From the NCBI GenBank assembly GCA_963817525.1, contig CAWFOU010000001.1, positions 320,001 to 384,000 of the forward strand: 64,000 bases of DNA, given 5' to 3'. Below, piece by piece: positions 194-29,862 of this stretch. The first letter of the stretch is position 1; the number at the start of each line of letters is the position of its first letter. The notes below the pieces were generated by a model. That model saw only the letters and a list, made by a program, of their open reading frames with translations. It did no database searches and was not told the DNA's origin. Source of the stretch: an uncultured archaeon (GTDB taxonomy: Archaea; Thermoproteota; Nitrososphaeria; Nitrososphaerales; Gagatemarchaeaceae). A program made the position numbers and the translations under genes.

Positions 194-883
194 TCAGGGC
201 ATCTTCGCCGAGATCAGCGCGTGGTCCTTGTCAAAGGGGCGCAGGTCGATCACCCTCTCTACGACGAACCCCGCCTCGTTCAGCTTCTGCGCCTCCTCCC
301 TGAACACTAGCTTGGGGTCCTTGAGCTGGTCGATGCTCCTGGCCTTCACGATGAGAAGGAGCCTCCCTCCCTCCTTGAGGTGCCTCTTCGCGTTCTCCAT
401 GGCAATCTCCGTCTGGTCCCTCTGCGCGATGTCGCAGTAGACGACGTCCATCTTCCCGAACTCCCCGAACCTCTCCGTCTCCCGGGCGTCCGAGATGAAC
501 GGGATGACGTTCCCCCTCGCCTTCGCTACCTTCTCGAGGAACTCCCGGCCCACGCGGGCGGACATCTCCACGCCGACCACCAGCCCCTCGCCCCCCACGA
601 TGTCCGAGACGTGCGAGGCCGTGGTGCCCGTCGAGGCGCCCAGGTAGAGGACCTTGTCCCCCGCCTTGATGATGTCAGGGTCCAGCTCGCCCTTGAGGAT
701 GGCTCCGGCGAGCTTGCTCCTGTAGGGGTCCCAGCTGCGGTACTCACTGCCGTGGATCCTCAGAAGGTCTTCGTCGTATACCCTATTGCCCGGGACGAGG
801 TTTCTTGTAAAAACGCTTGTCCTTCCGTCCTCCCGGTTTCCTCTCCGCCCCCGGCCTTCCATAACGAGGACGTTGGTTGTCAT
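194..883 (-). CDS. flpA: Fibrillarin, C/D box RNP 2'-O-methyltransferase
   Basis: TRNLVPG..VY, YRSWDPYRSKLA, VLYLGASTGTTASHVSD, YCDIAQRDQ, KARSID motifs; downstream of nop5. Confidence 0.97.
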   Translation of the reverse strand: MTTNVLVMEGRGRRGNREDGRTSVFTRNLVPGNRVYDEDLLRIHGSEYRSWDPYRSKLAGAILKGELDPDIIKAGDKVLYLGASTGTTASHVSDIVGGEGLVVGVEMSARVGREFLEKVAKARGNVIPFISDARETERFGEFGKMDVVYCDIAQRDQTEIAMENAKRHLKEGGRLLLIVKARSIDQLKDPKLVFREEAQKLNEAGFVVERVIDLRPFDKDHALISAKMP

Positions 884-2024
884 TTCGGCGGAACTCTCTT
901 CGCTGCTCGGGTCGCGGCGGCGGTGGCTCCTTATACTTTATCTTGATCTCGGCGAGCCTCTTCTCGAACAGGCCCGTCAGCTCGTTGGCCTTGGTCCCCC
1001 TGTAGTAGTCGATCCGGGCGGCGATGGCTATCTTGTTGGCCAGGGTCCTAGCGATCTTGCCCCTCTGCCACTTCGGGGCCATGTGGACCGCCTCGTGCTG
1101 GAAGAGTATGCCGTGCTTCGGGGGCCTCGACCCCGTCCTTATGGCCCTGAAGAGCGCCTTCTCCGCGCCCAGTACCTGTATCGTGCTCGCGGGCAGCCTC
1201 GCCATCCTCTCGAGCCCCCCGGCCCTCGCGATGAGCCTCGCGCCGATCGTTGCCCCTGCGACCTGCGTGATGTTGGGGGCGATCTTGTTCATGGTCGAGT
1301 CGACGGTCTCTGCCATCTTCTCCCTCTCGTTGGCGGTCTTGACCGCGAGCTCGGCCAGGCCGACGATCCGATGCATGTCCTTCTCGGAGATCGTCCCTCC
1401 CTTGGACTTCTCCGACGCCAGCATTATCGCCTCTGCCTTCTTGCCGGCGTAGCCCTGCTTCTCAAGCGCCTCTTCGTCGAAGGTCCCGCGCCTCCCTATC
1501 TCGATTATCAGCTTGGCGAGGGCGAGGTTGTCCTTCAGGATGTCCTGCAGCTCGGGGAAGTGCAGGCTATACCATTCCATCGTCCTCTCCGTCGTGATAT
1601 TGAGGAAGCGGTCGAGCTCGTCGAGGGCCTGGATGGCGTTGACGAGGTGCAGGTCCTCCTTGGAGGAGGCCTCGCTCACCTCGTGCTCGGCCGCCGCGAT
1701 CGCGCGGGCCCTCGCCTCTCCTATGGCGCTCCCAGCGTCTCGAGCGAGCCCCGCCTTTGCCATTATCGCAGCCTTCCTAGAGTCGAGGTCGTCGCGCTCC
1801 TCGTCGGTCGCTATCGACGTCTCGATCCCGAACTCCTCCATCTTCTCCTTCGCAGGCATGCTGGAGACCTTGAGGCGGGAGATGCCCTTGCGCTTGACCC
1901 CCTCGGCGACCCTCTCCAGCTTCTCATCCCTCTCCATCGCCTCGGCCCTCTCCGAGACGAGGACGTCGTCCCCCTGGACGACTATGAACCCCGCCTCCGT
2001 CTCGTAGAGAATCGGCTCTGGCAA
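783..2024 (-). CDS. nop5: Nop5 (Nop56/58) C/D box RNP subunit
   Basis: EWYSLHFPEL, LPASTIQVLGAEKALF, PPKHGILFQH, RGKIARTLA motifs; basic C-terminal tail. Start placed at TTG 2024, ~30 nt from a TTTATC box. Confidence 0.96.
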   Translation of the reverse strand: MPEPILYETEAGFIVVQGDDVLVSERAEAMERDEKLERVAEGVKRKGISRLKVSSMPAKEKMEEFGIETSIATDEERDDLDSRKAAIMAKAGLARDAGSAIGEARARAIAAAEHEVSEASSKEDLHLVNAIQALDELDRFLNITTERTMEWYSLHFPELQDILKDNLALAKLIIEIGRRGTFDEEALEKQGYAGKKAEAIMLASEKSKGGTISEKDMHRIVGLAELAVKTANEREKMAETVDSTMNKIAPNITQVAGATIGARLIARAGGLERMARLPASTIQVLGAEKALFRAIRTGSRPPKHGILFQHEAVHMAPKWQRGKIARTLANKIAIAARIDYYRGTKANELTGLFEKRLAEIKIKYKEPPPPRPEQRREFRRNDNQRPRYGRPGAERKPGGRKDKRFYKKPRPGQ

Positions 2025-2159
2025 GAAAAATTCGATTCCAGCGTCCGCGGGGCACGGATAAAGGTTGTCGCTGCGGGTTGAACTCACGCTCTTCGCCAAT
2101 CGGCGGCTGAGGTCCTTCGAACCGACGTGGGCGGTTAAATCATCTGATTCGATGTGTTG

Positions 2160-2793
2160 ATGTTGGAACTGAGGTTCTGTGGGTCCTGTGGAAGGGCGCT
2201 GGAGAGGACGAAAAACGCCAAGTTTTGCGACAGGGCTTGCTATGCGCAGGCAGTCAGAGATGGCATCACCTCGAACAATGGCCGCTTTCGAAAGGGCAAC
2301 CCGTCCCCCAAAAAGGCAGGACGCTCGAATCTTGGGTCGGGGAGGAGAGAGCTCAAGAGATCAGAAACAGGATGTCTCAATCGTCGAAAGGGAAGGCCCC
2401 TTGGCTTAGAAGGTTGAACGAAGATGCGGAAGTCTTGGCGAAGAGAAAGGCTTCACGAAGATTCCACGAAGCCACCGTCCAAGAACTCGTCAAGCAATTC
2501 AGGAAGCTTGGTTGGAAGTGTTACACGCTGTCCGAATACGTCAGGGAAACGAGAACACCTGACGCGATTCTGTTTGACGGGAGAGAGCTCGTTGCGCTGG
2601 AGTGGAGCTGAAGAAGAAATGGAAGCCCAGCGCTGAGTTGATGACCCGGCGCCTGACCGATCTGAACGACCAATCGAGGTTCTTTGATAGGACAAGCCTG
2701 GTATTTCCAGACGAGAGGACTGAGCTGACCAAACAGATCCCCTCTTTCGTGGACGAGATATTGACTCACAAAAGATTATATCGGGACTCTTGA
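2160..2793 (+). pseudogene. Frameshifted homing-endonuclease-like nuclease (Zn finger + NUMOD3-like motif + PD-(D/E)xK-like domain)
   Basis: Three ORF pieces join by two single-base frameshifts (A-run 2310-2314; ~2602) into ~211 aa: CGSCG...FCDRAC, GRFRKGNPSPKKGRT...RMSQSSKGK, then PDAILFDGRELVALEVELKK. Lower GC than neighbours; TTAAAT box at ~2135. Confidence 0.65.
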
Positions 2794-2823
2794 TGCTCGG
2801 AATCGGAGGACTGAAAACAAAAC

Positions 2824-3019
2824 ATGCCGACCCACGGGAGTCAGCAGCTAAGAGCAAGTCTTACTGCCTCCAATCACTAAGGCCGGAAAAGTTCGCAGCC
2901 AAACGCCGAAAATTGAGGGAAAGCCCCACAAGGGTAAGATCCCCAAGGTCAGGAACACCCGGACCTACGTGAAGAGATTCACACTAAAGAGAAAGCCCGG
3001 ACAGAATTGGAGACTTTAG
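2824..3019 (+). CDS. rps30e: 30S ribosomal protein S30e, two exons (2824-2842 and 2874-3019)
   Basis: Spliced product [54 protein letters not shown] (54 aa) is a typical archaeal S30e; the unspliced frame stops at TAA 2878-2880. Confidence 0.93.
2843..2873 (+). other. 31-nt bulge-helix-bulge (BHB) intron in rps30e mRNA
   Basis: Central helix GGAG(2837-40)/CTCC(2868-71), 3-nt bulges TCA(2841-43) and AAT(2872-74), intron stem GCAG-c-TAAGA/TCTTA-CTGC; cutting after the second nt of each bulge creates the CTC (Leu) codon and restores frame. Confidence 0.88.
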
Positions 3020-4626
3020 ACTCCAATCCTCCCTCGGAAGGAGAGCTGGCGGCAGTCTCCTCGATTGTCGCCTCCATCCTCTCAGGGGACGTCACGTCCC
3101 GCCCCCACCTGGAGCGGGCCAAGAAGGAGGCCGCGAAGCGCTATCGTCTCGGCAAGTTCCTCAAGAACTCTCAGATCTACCTCGCGCTCTCACCAGAGGA
3201 GCGAGAAGGGAGGAAGGAGATGTTCCGCGTCCACCCCCGGAGGAGCGCCTCCGGAATCGTCATCGTCACTGTCTTCACGTCCCCTGCCAGCTGCCCCCAC
3301 GGCACCTGCGTCTACTGCCCGGGCGGCCCCTCCATGGGGACGCCCCAGAGCTACGTCCCTGACGGCCCCAGCATGAGAGGCGCGCGCGGGGTCGGCTTCG
3401 ACCCCTTCCTCCAGGCGCAGAAGATGCTCAGGAAGTACCTAGACCGCGGGCACGAGGCCTCGAAGGTCGAGCTGATGGTGGAGGGCGGGACCTTCCTCGC
3501 GATGCCGAGGGGATACCAGGAGTGGTTCATCAAGGGGGCGTTTGACGGCCTCAACTGCGCGCAGACTCCTTCTGTGTCTCTCGAGGAGGCACACACGGCA
3601 AACGAGTCGGCGGAGTACAGGTCAGTGGGCCTCACCATAGAGACCAAGCCTGACTGGTGCCGGCCCGAGCACGTCGACATGCTCCTCTCGTACGGGGTCA
3701 CCAAGGTGGAGATAGGGGTCCAAGCCCTAAGGGACGACATACTCGCGAGGAGCAACCGGGGCCACACCGTCCAGGACACGCTCGACGCGTTCCGCGTGGC
3801 GCGGGACGCCGGGCTCAAGGTCGCGGCCCACATGATGCCGGGGCTCCCCGGCTCCAACCCGGAGGACGACCTCGCCGACCTCCTGCGGCTGTTCGAGGAA
3901 GAGTCCCTCCGCCCCGACATGATGAAGCTCTACCCCACCACCGTCGTGAAGGGGACGGCCCTCGCGAAGATGTGCGAAGCGGGGCTCTACGAGCCCTACG
4001 ACCTCGAAACCGTCGTCAGCCTAATCGCCGAGATGAAGGTGCACGTCCCGCCCTGGCACAGGATAATGAGGATACAGCGGGAGATACCCGAGGCCGACAT
4101 CGCGGCCGGCAACAAGGCGGGGAACCTCAGGGAGCTCGTCCTCGCAAGGGTGAAGGCCGACGGCCACTCGTGCGGCTGCATAAGGTGCCGCGAGGTGGGC
4201 ATGGACACCCCCTCCGACCTCCAGGGCGGCGAAGAGGGCGACCTCGTCCTGCGCGTCACGAGCTATCCTGCCTCGGGAGGCGCCGAGGTCTTCGCCACCT
4301 ACGAGTACGAAAGGTCGGGCAAGCTCGCGGGGTTCGTCAGGATGCGCTCCCCGTCCGAGAGGTCGCACCGGCCGGAGATGGGCGGAGCTTGCATAGTGAG
4401 GGAGCTCAAGGTCTACGGGAGGGTGGTCTCTGTGGGCTCGAGGGACGAGCAGGCCTTCCAGCACCGGGGGCTGGGACGCTCCCTCCTCGAGGAGATGGAG
4501 AAGGAGGCCTCTGAGCGCTTCGACGCTCGCACGCTCCTGGTGATGAGCGCCGTGGGGACGAGGAACTACTATAGGAAGCACGGCTACGAGAGGTCGGGCC
4601 CCTACGTGGGCAAGAGTCTGAAATAG
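3007..4626 (+). CDS. elp3: Elp3-type radical SAM/GNAT tRNA wobble-uridine modifying enzyme
   Basis: CPHGTCVYCPGG, ETKPDW, HMMPGLPG, RIQREIP, RELKVYG, QHRGLG, SAVGTRNYY motifs. Confidence 0.96.
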   Translation: METLDSNPPSEGELAAVSSIVASILSGDVTSRPHLERAKKEAAKRYRLGKFLKNSQIYLALSPEEREGRKEMFRVHPRRSASGIVIVTVFTSPASCPHGTCVYCPGGPSMGTPQSYVPDGPSMRGARGVGFDPFLQAQKMLRKYLDRGHEASKVELMVEGGTFLAMPRGYQEWFIKGAFDGLNCAQTPSVSLEEAHTANESAEYRSVGLTIETKPDWCRPEHVDMLLSYGVTKVEIGVQALRDDILARSNRGHTVQDTLDAFRVARDAGLKVAAHMMPGLPGSNPEDDLADLLRLFEEESLRPDMMKLYPTTVVKGTALAKMCEAGLYEPYDLETVVSLIAEMKVHVPPWHRIMRIQREIPEADIAAGNKAGNLRELVLARVKADGHSCGCIRCREVGMDTPSDLQGGEEGDLVLRVTSYPASGGAEVFATYEYERSGKLAGFVRMRSPSERSHRPEMGGACIVRELKVYGRVVSVGSRDEQAFQHRGLGRSLLEEMEKEASERFDARTLLVMSAVGTRNYYRKHGYERSGPYVGKSLK

Positions 4627-7733: not shown

Positions 7734-9650
7734 ACGGAGAGACCCACAGGCGCGAGCCTCCCCTTCGACCCCGAGGCCTGCCAGCTCAGGGTGGGCCTAG
7801 AGATCCATCAGCAGCTTGCTACCAGCACCAAGCTCTTCTGCCCCTGCCCTATCGTAAAGTCCGAGGAGCTCCCTCTCTCCTTCGAGAGGAGGCTGCGCCC
7901 GACCCAGAGCGAGCTCGGCCAGATAGACCCCGCCGCGGTCTTCGAGTTCAACAAGGGGCGGGTCAACCTCTACAAGTGGAACCCCGAGTCGGCGTGCCTC
8001 GTCGACGCAGACGAGGAGCCCCCCCACCCGCCCAACGGCGAGGCCATCGAGACCGCCATGCTCATGGCAGAGGTGCTGGGGTCGAGCACCGTCGACGAGG
8101 TGCACGTGATGCGCAAGCTGGTCATCGACGGGTCCAACACGTCGGGGTTTCAGAGGACCGCGATCATCGCGCTCGGGGGGGCGCTCCGCGTCCTCGCCCC
8201 CCGCCCGTTCAAGGTGGGAGTCCAGACGATCACCGTGGAGGAGGACTCTTCGCGGGTCCTGAGGGAGGGGAGCCGAGCGAGGGAGTACGCCCTCGACAGG
8301 ATGGGCGTCCCTCTCGTCGAGATAGCGCTCGACCACGTCGTCGGTATCCCGGAGGAAGTGGAGGCCGTCGCCCTCACGCTTGGCAGGTCCCTCCGCTCGA
8401 CGGGGCGGGTGACGAGGGGCCAGGGGACGATCCGGCAGGACCTGAACGTCTCGCTTCTTGGGGGCCAGGTGGTCGAGGTCAAGGGCGTCCAGAAGCTGAA
8501 CCTGATCGCGAAGGTCGTCCGCTACGAGGCGACCCGACAGATGGGGATGGTCAGGATCGCCGACGAGATCAAGAAGAAGATCGCGGAGGTCGAGTGCAGG
8601 TCGCTCGACGTCACCTCGGCCCTCAGGGGGACCGCCTCCCCGATCCTCAAGCGCATCGTCCAGAAGGGGGGCGTCGTCACCTGCGTCTCCGTCGCGGGCT
8701 TTCATGGCCTCCTCGGCTTCGAGCCGTTCCCCGGGATCCGTCTCGGTAAAGAGCTCGCGGAGATTGCCAGGACGAACGGCCTCGGCGGGGTGATACACTC
8801 CGACGAGTTCGCGAAGCAGGGGCTGACCGAGGAGGAGTCCGTGGCGCTGCGCGCCCTCACAGGGTCCGACTCCGGGGCGGGGCTCGTCCTCATCGCTGGG
8901 GAGCCAGAAAGCGTCGAGACCGTGTCCGCGCTCGTCATCGAGCGCCTCAAGAGGGCCCCCCTAGGCGTCCTGGGGGAGACCAGGGCGGCGACGGACGAAG
9001 GCGAGACGAGGTACCTGAGGCCCCGACCCGGCGCGGCGAGGATGTATCCGGAGACGGACATCCCCGAGATAGTCGTTGCGGAGGAGTGGAAGCAGAGGCT
9101 CAAGACGATGCTCCCCGTGCCGTGGAGGGAGAAGGTGGCCGGATACTCGAAGAAGTACTCGCTGAGCGAGGAGGCGGCCCTCCAGCTCTACGACTCCGAC
9201 AACGCGAAGCTATTCGAGGAGCTCGCGGGTCGGCTCGAGCTCGAGCCCTCGGTGATAGCCTCGATGTTGGTCGAGCTCCCGGTGCGCCTCTCGAGGGAGG
9301 GCGTGGACGAGTCTAAGATCACGCCCGAGACCCTCTCGTCGGTCCTCGAGGCGGTCGACGAGGAGAGGTTCGCGAAGGAGGCGGCGATCGAGGTCCTCCG
9401 GGCCATAGGGAGGGGCGACGCGCGAGGCGTCGACGAGGCGGTCTCGAAGCTCGGCCTGACCGGGATGAGCGACGAAGAGCTCAAGAAGATCATCGCCGGC
9501 GTGGTGAAAAGAAACAAGCAAGTCGTGAGGGAGAAGGGGGACCGCGCGTTCAGCGTCCTCATGGGCGAGGTGATGAAGCTCGCGAGGGGGAAGGTCGACG
9601 GAAAGAAGGTCAGCAAGATGCTGAAGCAAGCGATAGACGACGCCCGCTGA
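7734..9650 (+). CDS. gatE: Glu-tRNA(Gln) amidotransferase subunit E (start uncertain)
   Basis: GLEIHQQL..KLFC, DEEPPH, MRKLVIDGSNTSGFQRT, RPRPGAARMYPETD; no ATG/GTG/TTG in frame between GTG ~7629 and the conserved core. Confidence 0.94.
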   Translation, partial: TERPTGASLPFDPEACQLRVGLEIHQQLATSTKLFCPCPIVKSEELPLSFERRLRPTQSELGQIDPAAVFEFNKGRVNLYKWNPESACLVDADEEPPHPPNGEAIETAMLMAEVLGSSTVDEVHVMRKLVIDGSNTSGFQRTAIIALGGALRVLAPRPFKVGVQTITVEEDSSRVLREGSRAREYALDRMGVPLVEIALDHVVGIPEEVEAVALTLGRSLRSTGRVTRGQGTIRQDLNVSLLGGQVVEVKGVQKLNLIAKVVRYEATRQMGMVRIADEIKKKIAEVECRSLDVTSALRGTASPILKRIVQKGGVVTCVSVAGFHGLLGFEPFPGIRLGKELAEIARTNGLGGVIHSDEFAKQGLTEEESVALRALTGSDSGAGLVLIAGEPESVETVSALVIERLKRAPLGVLGETRAATDEGETRYLRPRPGAARMYPETDIPEIVVAEEWKQRLKTMLPVPWREKVAGYSKKYSLSEEAALQLYDSDNAKLFEELAGRLELEPSVIASMLVELPVRLSREGVDESKITPETLSSVLEAVDEERFAKEAAIEVLRAIGRGDARGVDEAVSKLGLTGMSDEELKKIIAGVVKRNKQVVREKGDRAFSVLMGEVMKLARGKVDGKKVSKMLKQAIDDAR

Positions 9651-26972: not shown

Positions 26973-28157
26973 AAGACGACGGCAGCGCACAAGGTCTACT
27001 TTGCAATCTTCGGCTCGGGACTGGGCCACGCGACCAGGGTCATGGACATCGGCAAGCGCCTCTCGGCAGAGGAGTGCGCCCTGCGCTACTCCTGCTCGGG
27101 CCAAGGCTTCCGATACATCCGGACGCACAGTCCCGCCGCGGACACACTGGAGTGCCCTCCGCTCGACGTGGAATGGACGGAGGAGGGGAGCTTCTCCGGG
27201 AGGGACTTCATGGTGCACTTCCCCGTGATGCTCCGCTCCTTCGCCAAGCAGGTCGCCTTCGAGGCTGAGAGCATAGCAAAGTTCGACCCGGCGGTTGCCG
27301 CCTCCGACTCGAGGCTGTCGGCCGTCCTGGCGGCCAGGTCGAGGTCCTACCCTGTCGTCACCCTCCTGAACCAGTTCAAGGTCACCCTCCCCCCAAGATA
27401 CAGGGGCGACGCGCTGGGGGGCCTCTACGAGAGGATCGCAGGCAACGGCCTCGGGCTCTTGTGGTCGTTGAGCGAGCAGGTGCTGCTCACTGACCTTCCC
27501 CCGCCCTACACGATCGGGGAGGCCAACGTCGCCGGGACGGACCTCTCCAGGATAGTGAAGTACGTCGGTTTCACCTCCCCGGGCCTCGAGATCGACGAGG
27601 ACCGGCTTCTGAAGGCGAGAGAGGTCCTCGACAACGACCCGCGCCCCCTGATATTCTTCCAGATCAGCGGGCCCGACGCGACTAAGAAGAGGTTCATCGA
27701 GATCGTCCTTGGGTCGGTCGGGGGCCTCTCCGCGAGGTACAAGGTGGTCGTCTCAATGGGCTACCTGGGAGGCTCTGGAGAGCCCAGGAGGCTCGCCGGC
27801 GGGGCGCTCCTCTACGACTGGTGCCCCATCAAGGACGAGCTCTTCACCCTCTCTGAGGTGCTGGTGGGGAGGTCCGGCCATCGGACGATAGGTCAGTGCA
27901 TCGACGCGGGGAAGCCGGCCGTCCTCGTCCCCATCCACAACCACTCGGAGCAGATCGGGAACGCCGAGAAGTTCCAGAGCCTAGGGCTGGGGATCGCCAT
28001 CCTCCCGGGAGACCTCGAACCAGGTCGACTCATCGAGGCCATCGACTCGTGCGTCCAAGACCCGAAGTACAAGAGGAACCTAGAGTCGGTCGGGCGCGTC
28101 TCGAAGAGATACAGGGGCGTCGAGAGGTGCGCTGAGATCATCAGGTCGTACGCCTGA
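26973..28157 (+). CDS. GT-B glycosyltransferase (GT28/MJ1255-like); start codon not canonical
   Basis: In-frame KVYFAIFGSGLGHATRVM upstream of the ATG at 27042; GRSGHRTI, PIHNHSEQIGNA. Confidence 0.85.
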   Translation, partial: KTTAAHKVYFAIFGSGLGHATRVMDIGKRLSAEECALRYSCSGQGFRYIRTHSPAADTLECPPLDVEWTEEGSFSGRDFMVHFPVMLRSFAKQVAFEAESIAKFDPAVAASDSRLSAVLAARSRSYPVVTLLNQFKVTLPPRYRGDALGGLYERIAGNGLGLLWSLSEQVLLTDLPPPYTIGEANVAGTDLSRIVKYVGFTSPGLEIDEDRLLKAREVLDNDPRPLIFFQISGPDATKKRFIEIVLGSVGGLSARYKVVVSMGYLGGSGEPRRLAGGALLYDWCPIKDELFTLSEVLVGRSGHRTIGQCIDAGKPAVLVPIHNHSEQIGNAEKFQSLGLGIAILPGDLEPGRLIEAIDSCVQDPKYKRNLESVGRVSKRYRGVERCAEIIRSYA

Positions 28158-28862: not shown

Positions 28863-28878
28863 GCGCGAGCCCTCCGTC

Positions 28879-29862
28879 TCAGACGTTGTAGATTACCTTG
28901 CTGCCTTCGAAGTCGAACCTGAACCTCATCTCCGTCAGTCCTTGTCGCGCGAGCGCCGCCCTGACCTTCTCCCTTCCCTCCTGGCAGAAGAGCATGAGGA
29001 AGCCCCCGCCTCCCGCCCCGACGAGCTTCCCACCGAGCGCCCCCGCCTTCCTCGCGGCAGAGTACCACGAGTCCACCTTGCCTGTGCTCATCCCCTCCGT
29101 GATCCCGCGCTTCACCGTCCAGTGCTCGTGGAGCAGCTCGCCGAACCTCCCGAGGTCTCCGGACTCGAGGGCCTTCTTGCTCTCCTGGCCTATCGCCTTT
29201 ATCGCATGCATCTTCTTGACCGCCTCCCCCGCGCTCTCCGAGACCTTCGCCTGCTGCCTTCCCAGGATTTCCGATGCGCTCCGCGTGATCCCCGTGTAGA
29301 ACATCATTATCCCGTACTCGAGTTCGGAGAGCGTGCTCTCTGAGATCTCGAGCTTCGTGGATGTGACTCGCCCACGGGCGTCTATCTCGTACGACCTTAT
29401 CCCTCCCAGGCTGGCGGTGTACTCGTCCTGCTTCCCCGAAGGCTCCCCCAGCCTGTTCATCGCGATGTCGCACGCCGCCTCGGCGACCTCCTCGGGGGTC
29501 TTGACTGTCCTCTCCCGCGCGTAGAGGGCGTTGAGCAGCCCGACGGTGAAGCTCCCCGACGACCCGAGGCCTGTCGAGGCGGGGACGTCTGCGAGGGAGA
29601 CTATCTCTAGCTTGTCCCTCATGCCCAGGAGCTTGAGCGACTCCCGCACGGAGGGATGGCGTATCTGCTCGACGGACTCGACGATCTCCGTCTTGCTATA
29701 GCTCAGCCTTATCCCGGGCTCGAACCTGTCGTTCAGGACGATGTGCATGTACTTGTCGACCGCCCCCGAGATGAAGAATCCGCCGTGCTGCTTGTAGTAC
29801 GCGGGCAGGTCCGTCCCGCCACCCCCGAGCGACAGTCTGAAAGGGGTCCTTGAGACGATCAA
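28879..29862 (-). CDS. hddA: GHMP kinase, D-glycero-alpha-D-manno-heptose-7-phosphate kinase-like
   Basis: RTPFRLSLGGGGTD, PASTGLGSSG, GKQDEY, GGKLVGAGGGGF. Confidence 0.85.
   Translation of the reverse strand: MIVSRTPFRLSLGGGGTDLPAYYKQHGGFFISGAVDKYMHIVLNDRFEPGIRLSYSKTEIVESVEQIRHPSVRESLKLLGMRDKLEIVSLADVPASTGLGSSGSFTVGLLNALYARERTVKTPEEVAEAACDIAMNRLGEPSGKQDEYTASLGGIRSYEIDARGRVTSTKLEISESTLSELEYGIMMFYTGITRSASEILGRQQAKVSESAGEAVKKMHAIKAIGQESKKALESGDLGRFGELLHEHWTVKRGITEGMSTGKVDSWYSAARKAGALGGKLVGAGGGGFLMLFCQEGREKVRAALARQGLTEMRFRFDFEGSKVIYNV

Follow-up and report, generated by a model that had tools for sequence, protein, structure and literature searches.

At positions 2160–2793 of the DNA analysed here (64,000 nt from an uncultured archaeon, in the following called the window), a broken gene for a putative nuclease lies on the plus strand directly upstream of the ribosomal protein gene rps30e, which is itself interrupted by a very short intron (intron A). 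The reading frame of the nuclease gene starts with the ATG at 2160 (a GTG at 2154 is likewise in frame), has a full length of ∼211 codons, and is now distributed over three overlapping open frames (2154/2160 to ∼2312, 2312–2608, and 2602–2790). The first piece (2160..2312, frame 1; columns 1–53 of the homologues) carries a Cys4 zinc ribbon and the start of a NUMOD3-like segment. The second (2312..2602, frame 2) comprises the NUMOD3-like helices, two long helices, and the first half of a PD-(D/E)xK core with its S-E-Y and P-D motifs, and the third (2602..2793, frame 3) comprises V-E-x2-K-x2-K, a helix, strand 4, and a C-terminal helix up to the stop codon at 2791–2793. Between the first and the second piece, one nucleotide is missing from an A-run (break 1, 2310..2314), where the homologues read S-P-N-K-G-R; between the second and the third, one G is lost inside the E-V-E of the conserved A-L-E-V-E (break 2, 2600..2602), and frame 2 encounters a stop codon at 2609–2611. 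When aligned with four intact homologues, the three pieces cover the 204–215-aa protein end to end, without gap or overlap; the gene therefore contains exactly two 1-nt deletions, as a preliminary description of this DNA had proposed. That description had also placed a lower-GC open reading frame (ORF) between nop5 and rps30e, and its coordinates, the lower GC content, and this placement all proved correct: GC content across 2100–2900 is 0.51–0.56, compared with 0.61–0.70 in the flanks, and that of the nuclease gene is below its flanks in 13 of 13 homologous loci.

The divergently oriented upstream neighbor is nop5 (Nop56/58 homologue; 783–2099, minus strand; Pfam Nop, E 6.6e-65), beyond which lies the gene for fibrillarin (194–883, minus strand; Pfam Fibrillarin, E 1.3e-73); downstream of rps30e, elp3 encodes a protein with radical SAM and GNAT parts (3007..4626, plus strand; Pfam Radical_SAM_C, Radical_SAM, ELP3_N, and GNAT). 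Position and conservation point to a putative promoter of the nuclease gene at 2128..2150 (plus strand), with a TATA-like GTTAAAT at 2134–2140, ∼20 nt before the ATG; in an alignment, the same block (GGGCGG-T/C-TAAAT...TCTGA) is also found directly upstream of the intact nuclease gene of a relative, G018 (genomes, loci, and proteins are numbered G, L, and P, respectively).

The rps30e gene consists of two exons on the plus strand. By comparison with intronless orthologues, exon 1 (2824..2842, 19 nt) encodes M-P-T-H-G-S and supplies the first base of a Leu codon; exon 2 (2874..3019) continues with L-T-K-A-G-K-V-R up to the stop codon at 3017–3019, and Pfam PF04758 matches the window at 2873–3007 (32.7 bits, cut-off 27). 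Removing the 31 nt between the exons (2843..2873) results in M-P-T-H-G-S-L-T-K-A-G-K-V-R, which is uninterrupted in the intronless orthologues. The preliminary description had the nuclease ORF end 50 nt before this intron, which is what the stop codon at 2793 and the intron start at 2843 give. Intron A is a mini-intron of the bulge-helix-bulge (BHB) type: a 4-bp central helix (2837–2840/2868–2871) pairs the exonic GGAG with the intronic CTCC, two 3-nt bulges (2841–2843 and 2872–2874) adjoin it, 2844–2867 form an inner hairpin, and cutting after the second base of each bulge releases exactly 31 nt. Its outer helix is only 1 bp long, which corresponds to the relaxed BHB form. Nineteen genomes have an intron at this site (31 nt in 17 and 32 nt in two). 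Across these 19 sequences, 97.2% of the cells conform to the pairing, compared with 30–51% when the partner is slid, and compensatory (both-side) changes were observed in 6 of the 13 pairs, values which were reached by none of 500 shuffles. Intron A is a real structured BHB element. It is presumably spliced from the rps30e RNA, and the window's genome encodes two proteins with an EndA domain as well as RtcB.

A putative rps30e promoter (AAAAGATTATAT; 2770..2781, plus strand) falls within the 3′-terminal part of the nuclease ORF and coincides with a conserved AAGATTA-A/T-AT block; it is followed by a conserved Shine-Dalgarno-like GGAGG (2805–2809, plus strand). Block and GGAGG are both kept upstream of all intron-A alleles, irrespective of whether the nuclease gene is present or not, and the block probably serves as the promoter of rps30e. 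With its split ORF and non-canonical start, rps30e is easily mis-annotated in these genomes. In many relatives, the gene begins with ACG where others have ATG (L010, L011, L013–L015, L020, L022–L024, L041–L045, L067, and L068); no in-frame ATG, GTG, or TTG is available there, and L020 and L024 have an in-frame stop codon two to three codons upstream. Either ACG may be the start codon, or the 5′ end of rps30e is not yet understood in those relatives.

A word-indexed search with the intact protein of G018 retrieved 52 homologues of the nuclease, all at least 50% identical, all designated “hypothetical protein,” and all without a Pfam domain. The 13 genome loci of the family are all in metagenome-assembled genomes (MAGs) of Nitrososphaerota, and no relative of the family was found in viral contigs. 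Across 29 aligned family sequences, 42 columns are invariant, among them S-E-Y (E124), P132, D133, E146, V147, E148, K151, and K154. The PD...EVE nuclease-like core noted in the preliminary description is therefore made up of residues that do not vary within the family, and the zinc finger it had listed is likewise present, as a Cys4 pattern (C-x2-C...F-C-x3-C) nearly invariant in the same 29 sequences; in Pfam, this ribbon yielded a sub-threshold match only (DUF2116, “probable treble clef,” E 0.03). The third element, the NUMOD3-like motif, fared less uniformly. Pfam NUMOD3 itself (PF07460) matched neither the window pieces (up to E 1) nor four intact homologues (up to E 5), but kinship was evident at the level of profiles: the family profile retrieves nucleases that bear NUMOD3, and hhalign aligned the family with one of them (P0108, containing NUMOD3 and a sub-threshold Hjc match) at a probability of 96.6% (E 6.9e-10), over both the K-G-x-T-x-E...E-I-x2-K-x-S segment and the P-D...E-V-E core.

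A nuclease fold, without which the preliminary description would not have stood, was indicated by a structure search with the AlphaFold2 model of an intact homologue (P0003; mean pLDDT 78.6, pTM 0.59). The model consists of a small N-terminal ribbon, two long helices, and an alpha-beta-beta-beta-alpha-beta core (helix 88–114, strands 118–121, 134–137, and 142–147, helix 157–171, and strand 176–180). Its best Foldseek matches in the Protein Data Bank (PDB) are all PD-(D/E)xK nucleases (E 3.1e-3 to 5e-2, thus modest; probability up to 1.00), namely, Hjc/Hje resolvases, the restriction-like endonuclease domain of R2 retrotransposon proteins, HincII, EcoT38I, the Cas4 protein SSO0001, and VRR-NUC. 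In the model, P132-D133 and E146-V-E148 appear to be located at the strands where the PD-(D/E)xK signature would be expected, with Glu in the place of the canonical Lys and the invariant K151 and K154 after it.

An exhaustive profile search of 1.84 billion representatives returned 122 proteins at E ≤1e-3, 33 at 1e-10, and nine at 1e-30; many of the distant matches hit profile positions 35–80 repeatedly. Domains were scanned in 20 of the 122, picked for multiple matching stretches or long matches to the core. Four carry Pfam NUMOD3 above cut-off (P0093, P0098, P0099, and P0108), four contain DUF559 above cut-off together with matches to Vsr or MTES_1575 (restriction-endonuclease-like), one carries GIY-YIG, and in three, C2H2 fingers are joined to the same core. 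The distant relatives are thus modular nucleases, in which NUMOD3 is combined with DUF559/Vsr-like, GIY-YIG, or Hjc-like parts, a build typical of homing endonucleases. In P0073, P0083–P0085, and P0116, C2H2 fingers replace the Cys4 ribbon and the NUMOD3-like part; these proteins may be further free-standing nucleases.

The distribution of nuclease gene and intron was compared across 61 genomes (60 relatives and the window's own, G000), in 48 of which rps30e was readable. Nine have intron A only (G000, G008, G014, G018, G027, G028, G031, G032, and G036), two have intron A together with a second intron described below as intron B (G021 and G025), seven have intron B only (G003, G004, G006, G007, G009, G012, and G016), and 30 have no intron (nine of the same family and 21 from other readable families of the order); intron A is hence absent from 37 of the 48. 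Strong matches to the nuclease gene were obtained in five of the 61 genomes (G000, G014, G018, G021, and G027), and all six genomes with a nuclease gene or a remnant of it (including G031) share intron A. When one genome per species was scanned, 13 nuclease loci were found, four of them already among the named genomes; an intron-A rps30e lies directly downstream in all 12 readable ones, six of which also have intron B (one being G021 again). A scan of metagenomes added 55 loci, eight ending at a contig edge and 47 with at least 113 nt of downstream sequence, and in all 47 the downstream allele is of the intron-A type (43 identified by pattern, four by eye). The preliminary description would have been refuted by nuclease and intron being distributed independently. 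This is not what was found, because each of the 13 genomes readable downstream and each of the 47 metagenome contigs has an intron-A rps30e immediately 3′ of the nuclease gene, which in these 13 genomes and 47 contigs was never observed beside an intronless rps30e, although 30 of the 48 rps30e genes are intronless. The neighbor on its other side varies and may be nop5, an extra ORF of 181 aa, a PyrK-like gene, or the gene for a membrane protein. Relative to rps30e, but not to the upstream gene, the position of the nuclease gene is constant. Judging by the relatives, nuclease gene and intron seem to move as a unit, a single selfish cassette.

Intron B, found only in relatives of the window's genome (9 of 48), is a second BHB mini-intron of rps30e, 19–20 nt long and inserted within the codons for A-G-K-V-R, with a 4-bp central helix and 3-nt bulges in the same BHB geometry as intron A. 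It occurs in L041–L046, L054, L055, L057–L060, L067, and L068 (e.g., L043:2970–3017), and its inner helix covaries (TGCC/GGCA, TGCG/CGCA, and CTCT/AGAG). The two introns are 19 nt apart in a gene of 52 codons. In seven of the seven genomes with intron B only, the place immediately 5′ of rps30e is taken, on the same strand, by a different free-standing ORF of ∼200 aa, which encodes an N-terminal C2H2-like finger and a LAGLIDADG motif (L044:3150–3752, minus strand; L043:2357–2998, plus strand; L041:3165–3797, minus strand; and copies in G006, G009, G016, and G004). Pfam LAGLIDADG_1 matches the copy of G012 (L044:3150–3752) just above threshold (23.7 bits, cut-off 23.1; E 9.4e-5), and the other two copies tested fall below the cut-off (L041, 14.2 bits; L043, no match). 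The ORF is open in G012, G006, and G007 and contains stop codons or frame changes in G009, G003, G016, and G004. Its GC content is below that of the surroundings in three of three loci, and its 3′ end holds the rps30e promoter of the intron-B alleles. Five intronless genomes of the same genus retain only the last ∼60 nt of this gene, including the rps30e promoter. Remnants of an old exon upstream of the LAGLIDADG genes were not found in any of seven loci; a block at ∼2050–2075 of the window, considered as such a remnant in the case of intron A, occurs also upstream of the LAGLIDADG gene of L044, belongs to the nop5 side, and was discarded.

For a view of how these alleles came about, a tree of Elp3 was used (35 rows, leaving out the duplicates L002–L005, L015, which has no elp3, and L035 and L055, with <130 columns). 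The three classes of rps30e alleles are interleaved among close relatives on this tree and occur among genomes whose Elp3 is 82–90% identical. Nearest to the window by Elp3 are L012 (neither intron nor nuclease; 90% identical), L042 (intron B and LAGLIDADG gene), and L010 (none of these); L050, with intron A and nuclease (G018), comes only after them. Across 30 ingroup genomes, at least nine changes are required for the nuclease, six for intron A, and eight for intron B. Both nuclease and intron are very labile traits. What is observed is sporadic presence at one fixed locus beside a conserved gene, as is characteristic of free-standing homing endonuclease genes. The nuclease also evolves faster than Elp3 (69% vs. 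86% identity between the window and L050, and 58% vs. 78% between the window and L051).

One relative carries what looks like the footprint of a fresh insertion. In G018, L050:2359–2436 resembles the intronless rps30e of G017 over its working promoter, its leader, and coding nt 1–19 (87% identity, 78 nt, E 7e-23), and the similarity resumes only at L050:3211–3213, which corresponds to coding nt 20–22. The 774 nt in between (L050:2437–3210) comprise the nuclease promoter and gene, a promoter and ribosome-binding site of the intron-A type, a new exon 1, and intron A. The position of the insert coincides precisely with the intron-A site (coding nt 19/20), and upstream of it, the old promoter and the first ∼19 nt of the gene have been left stranded. 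As far as this alignment tells, an intronless allele thus received a copy of the cassette, whose left junction is 0–3 nt from the intron insertion site; a junction of this kind would be expected after one-sided homologous repair of a break there. G018 is the one case of copying into an empty allele. Exon 2 of G018 might be a mosaic, of which there is a weak hint: its first 15 nt agree with intron-A alleles at 13–14 positions and with intronless alleles at 11, and further on, the two do not discriminate (71–73 vs. 74–75 of 82). The opposite end of the process is represented by G031 (L038), in which a gutted remnant of the nuclease gene lies ∼300 nt upstream of exon 1; the middle of the gene is missing, a NUMOD3-like fragment is found in one frame, and the C-terminal F-F-D-E-T... 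in another. When remnants were sought in the six intron-A relatives without a nuclease ORF (five with intron A only and G025), G031 was the only one to have one. Copies of the nuclease gene decay repeatedly, as seen from the frameshifts in G000 and the remnant in G031.

Taken together, the gene at 2160–2793 of the window is probably a degenerate free-standing gene of the homing endonuclease type, forming a cassette with the rps30e promoter, exon 1, and the BHB intron A. The enzyme would recognize intronless rps30e and cut it at, or a few nucleotides from, coding position 19/20; that it cuts at the intron site is suggested by the junction in G018 and by the fact that no nuclease gene was found beside an intronless allele. 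Repair from the cassette-bearing allele would then copy nuclease gene and intron into the cut one. Because the intron would split the recognition site in the DNA of the carrier, the latter would be immune, which is proposed by analogy with F-CphI and psbA (see below), and rps30e would remain functional through excision of the intron from the RNA by the splicing endonuclease and the RtcB ligase of the host. Once the cassette is fixed in a lineage, the nuclease would no longer be maintained and would decay. Homing endonuclease genes cycle through invasion, degeneration, and loss, and an inactive and decaying copy such as that in the window is what this life cycle predicts; here, two 1-nt deletions, one of them in the catalytic motif, would have inactivated the nuclease and left the intron behind. 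The preliminary description had proposed an archaeal BHB mini-intron and an adjacent nuclease as such a collaborative pair, now decaying, and this proposal gained support from the linkage, the cassette of G018, the parallel case of the LAGLIDADG gene, and the decay. It is possible, although we would stop short of favoring it, that in one family of Nitrososphaerota, rps30e is contested by two cassettes of this kind (PD-(D/E)xK nuclease with intron A and C2H2-LAGLIDADG protein with intron B), each with its own promoter and 5′ end, each invading its own intron site and then decaying, and that BHB introns can be gained by such a mechanism at the DNA level.

A number of observations weigh against the interpretation as a mobile nuclease. 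Regarding the protein, Pfam, NCBIfam, and PHROGs name no significant family for the three pieces or four intact homologues, a profile search of PDB sequences gave nothing below E 0.58, and the structural matches are modest (no E ≤1e-3; TM-scores by target of 0.43–0.50). The motif is, furthermore, non-canonical: E-V-E has a Glu where (D/E)-x-K has its Lys, and Lys residues follow three and six positions later. Regarding the linkage, of the 11 intron-A relatives, five have the intron without any trace of the nuclease and one more has no more than a remnant, and a nuclease gene and an intron ∼50 nt apart would be inherited together anyway. In five independent pairs differing in the nuclease, intron A differed in the same way in three to four and in the opposite way in none (sign test, median p 0.25, not significant). 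In their broad outline, the trees of nuclease and Elp3 agree, and deep inheritance looks largely vertical; with congruent trees and proportional divergence, transfer between genera is not evident, and long residence with repeated loss must be part of the picture. The footprint, finally, was found in only one of 68 loci (none in the other 67, including 55 metagenome loci) and lies in a single metagenome-assembled contig, and for the first deletion in the window, there is no independent confirmation, as no contig of the window strain was obtained over 2228–2309 or break 1.

The last point leads to the question of whether the gene is broken at all, for the frame changes might be assembly errors, or be bypassed by ribosomal frameshifting, in which case G000 would produce a complete protein. 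The window was compared over 1900–3100 with contigs from four public soil runs (all of one study, and possibly including the source sample). Of the two sites at which the preliminary description had recommended inspection of the reads, the one at 2602 was borne out, break 2 being spanned with 0 differences by contigs of three runs (X1 record 2, X2 record 4, and X4 record 11; the contig of X3 record 8 begins only 21 nt before it). The one at 2310–14 was not, as it is crossed only by a variant strain (X4 record 10, 19 differences) with one extra base behind 2314 and thus the intact frame S-P-N-K-G-R-T-L. Sequencing error or −1 slippage is indeed plausible at break 1, which lies in an A-run (C-AAA-AAG type) that no independent contig of the window strain covers, and frame breaks are encountered even in elp3 of some relatives' MAGs. 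Break 2, on the other hand, is not only reproducible but located in a sequence that is not slippery, within the catalytic motif, and 9 nt ahead of a stop codon. A stop-to-stop comparison of ORFs between the 64-kb window and the syntenic 70 kb of G018, too crude for deriving a rate, flagged eight frame changes in the window. Break 2 accounts for two (once per strand), at least one other (9634–9643) is a plain gene boundary, and at most two to three further, unverified candidates are left in 64 kb, among them those near 27,207 and 28,880. Two breaks within one 640-nt gene are therefore unlikely to be random errors, and it is very unlikely that G000 still makes the intact protein. Programmed frameshifting was weighed and dropped: of the two −1 shifts, break 1 alone is at a slippery sequence. 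At ∼27,200–27,215 and 28,865–28,890 of the window, one ORF of G018 matches in two frames, which may be due to frame breaks or to different gene boundaries. Split elp3 matches in L004/L054 (G021), L014, L042, and L045 suggest frame errors in MAGs and call for caution wherever a gene is termed broken.

If the decay is accepted, the gene could still have been an ordinary, non-mobile one, that is, a host DNA-binding nuclease or regulator specific to the lineage, which arose once beside rps30e in the family's ancestor, was inherited vertically, and was often lost; its link to intron A would then reflect shared ancestry and the distance of 50 nt instead of function. The broad congruence of the nuclease and Elp3 trees, the proportional divergence, the lack of significance in the paired sign test, the 42 columns invariant in 29 sequences (which point to purifying selection), and the fact that basal lineages of the family already carry intron A, with or without nuclease, would all agree with this. 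It would leave unexplained, however, why the cassette of G018 sits at the intron site with the old 5′ end upstream, why a second, unrelated gene of the homing endonuclease type occupies the same slot in association with a second intron, why at least nine changes of state occurred in 30 genomes, with three allele classes at 82–90% Elp3 identity, why the relatives are modular proteins of the NUMOD3 type, and why the GC deficit persists; we consider such a gene unlikely. A function at the level of RNA, as a maturase-like factor or RNA nuclease acting on the rps30e pre-mRNA, or as a regulator of rps30e, could account for the strict adjacency to intron-A alleles and for the overlap of the 3′ end of the ORF with the rps30e promoter. 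Yet, five of 11 intron-A relatives do without the gene, a sixth has a remnant, and it is broken in G000, with rps30e otherwise intact; the host has EndA and RtcB of its own, and fold and relatives are those of DNA nucleases, which makes such a role extremely improbable. A free-standing homing endonuclease gene that targets the intron site, with the BHB intron as its protection, fits the evidence better than any of these rivals.

BHB introns neither self-splice nor reverse-splice, most of them contain no ORF, and to our knowledge, they have no mobility of their own. For group I introns, “collaborative homing” has been described: according to PMC6083498, F-CphI of cyanophage S-PM2 cuts intronless psbA, the intron prevents self-cleavage, and the enzyme mobilizes an intron that has no ORF. 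The arrangement of a free-standing endonuclease gene adjoining an intron-containing gene is common to both systems. However, psbA belongs to a phage genome and not to an archaeal chromosome, and its intron is a self-splicing group I intron, whereas the intron here has 31 nt, is of the BHB type, and depends on host enzymes. F-CphI is an enzyme with an Endo VII motif and psbA as its target, instead of a PD-(D/E)xK fold and a ribosomal protein gene, and its cleavage activity was demonstrated, whereas here cleavage is deduced from the arrangement of alleles. Unlike that system, the cassette described here includes a promoter and a replacement exon 1, and two unrelated nuclease-intron pairs appear to compete for one gene of 52 codons. 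The original work on F-CphI and psbA is reportedly that of Zeng et al from 2009. We know of no demonstration of the principle, a free-standing nuclease with a shielding intron, other than for group I introns in phages.

Optional nuclease genes that are inserted between conserved genes, as here, are also known from T4-like phages, whose Seg and Mob enzymes are described in PMC6083498 and PMC2790892 as cutting the neighboring conserved gene where the nuclease gene is absent (“intronless homing”). They differ in belonging to the GIY-YIG and HNH families, in their hosts, and in an immunity that requires no intron. DNA-binding modules of the NUMOD type occur in free-standing homing endonucleases of T4-like phages. 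PD-(D/E)xK is counted among the six families of homing endonucleases in PMC6083498. With these enzymes, the nuclease described here would share the use of a restriction-endonuclease-like fold for homing. The gene of their type example, I-Ssp6803I, lies within a bacterial group I intron, and the enzyme has neither a zinc ribbon nor a NUMOD3-like part. The best structural matches of the model core, as mentioned, are the Hjc/Hje resolvases (2eo0, 2wcw, 4tkd, and 1gef; probability 0.95–1.00), but the identity with the family is only 12–18%, Pfam Hjc does not match, and E-x-K in Hjc corresponds to E-V-E here. The zinc ribbon, the NUMOD3-like segment, and the pair of long helices, all present in the family, are lacking in Hjc, and the patchy, locus-bound distribution of the family is unlike that of a housekeeping resolvase.

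Introns of the BHB type in a protein-coding gene, with gains and losses among lineages, were described for the cbf5 pre-mRNA of Crenarchaeota (PMC2738675). That case concerns another gene in another phylum, as opposed to two introns of 31 and 19–20 nt in a gene of 52 codons. No nuclease gene is known to us to be associated with the BHB intron of cbf5. BHB introns made mobile by a homing endonuclease, as is proposed here, have a precedent in archaeal rRNA genes with LAGLIDADG enzymes, the difference being that there, the enzyme is encoded inside a long intron, whereas here, the introns have 19–32 nt and the nuclease genes are outside, upstream of the host gene. For the small-subunit rRNA genes of Caldiarchaeum, transfer of an intron by the homing endonuclease encoded within it was inferred (PMC3082918). 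A literature search retrieved, in the full texts searched, no account of rps30e introns or of pairs of a free-standing nuclease and a BHB intron, although supplements may list such introns; the only BHB intron in an archaeal pre-mRNA to surface in that search was the one of cbf5 (PMC2738675).

If the interpretation holds, a free-standing nuclease shielded by an intron would be a route by which BHB introns without an ORF spread at the level of DNA. It could be tested in the sequenced relatives, which between them hold both nuclease families, both introns of the essential gene rps30e, every intermediate state of the allele, and a single recent insertion footprint. The known archaeal pre-mRNAs with BHB introns are very few and are now joined by one for a ribosomal protein, and candidate site-specific nucleases with new recognition modules are added. 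As a side observation, the RtcB match in the window's genome (G000:C1:1102130–1104943) is split into profile positions 1–50 and 49–426 by ∼1.4 kb within a single frame of 996 codons, as an intein would do.

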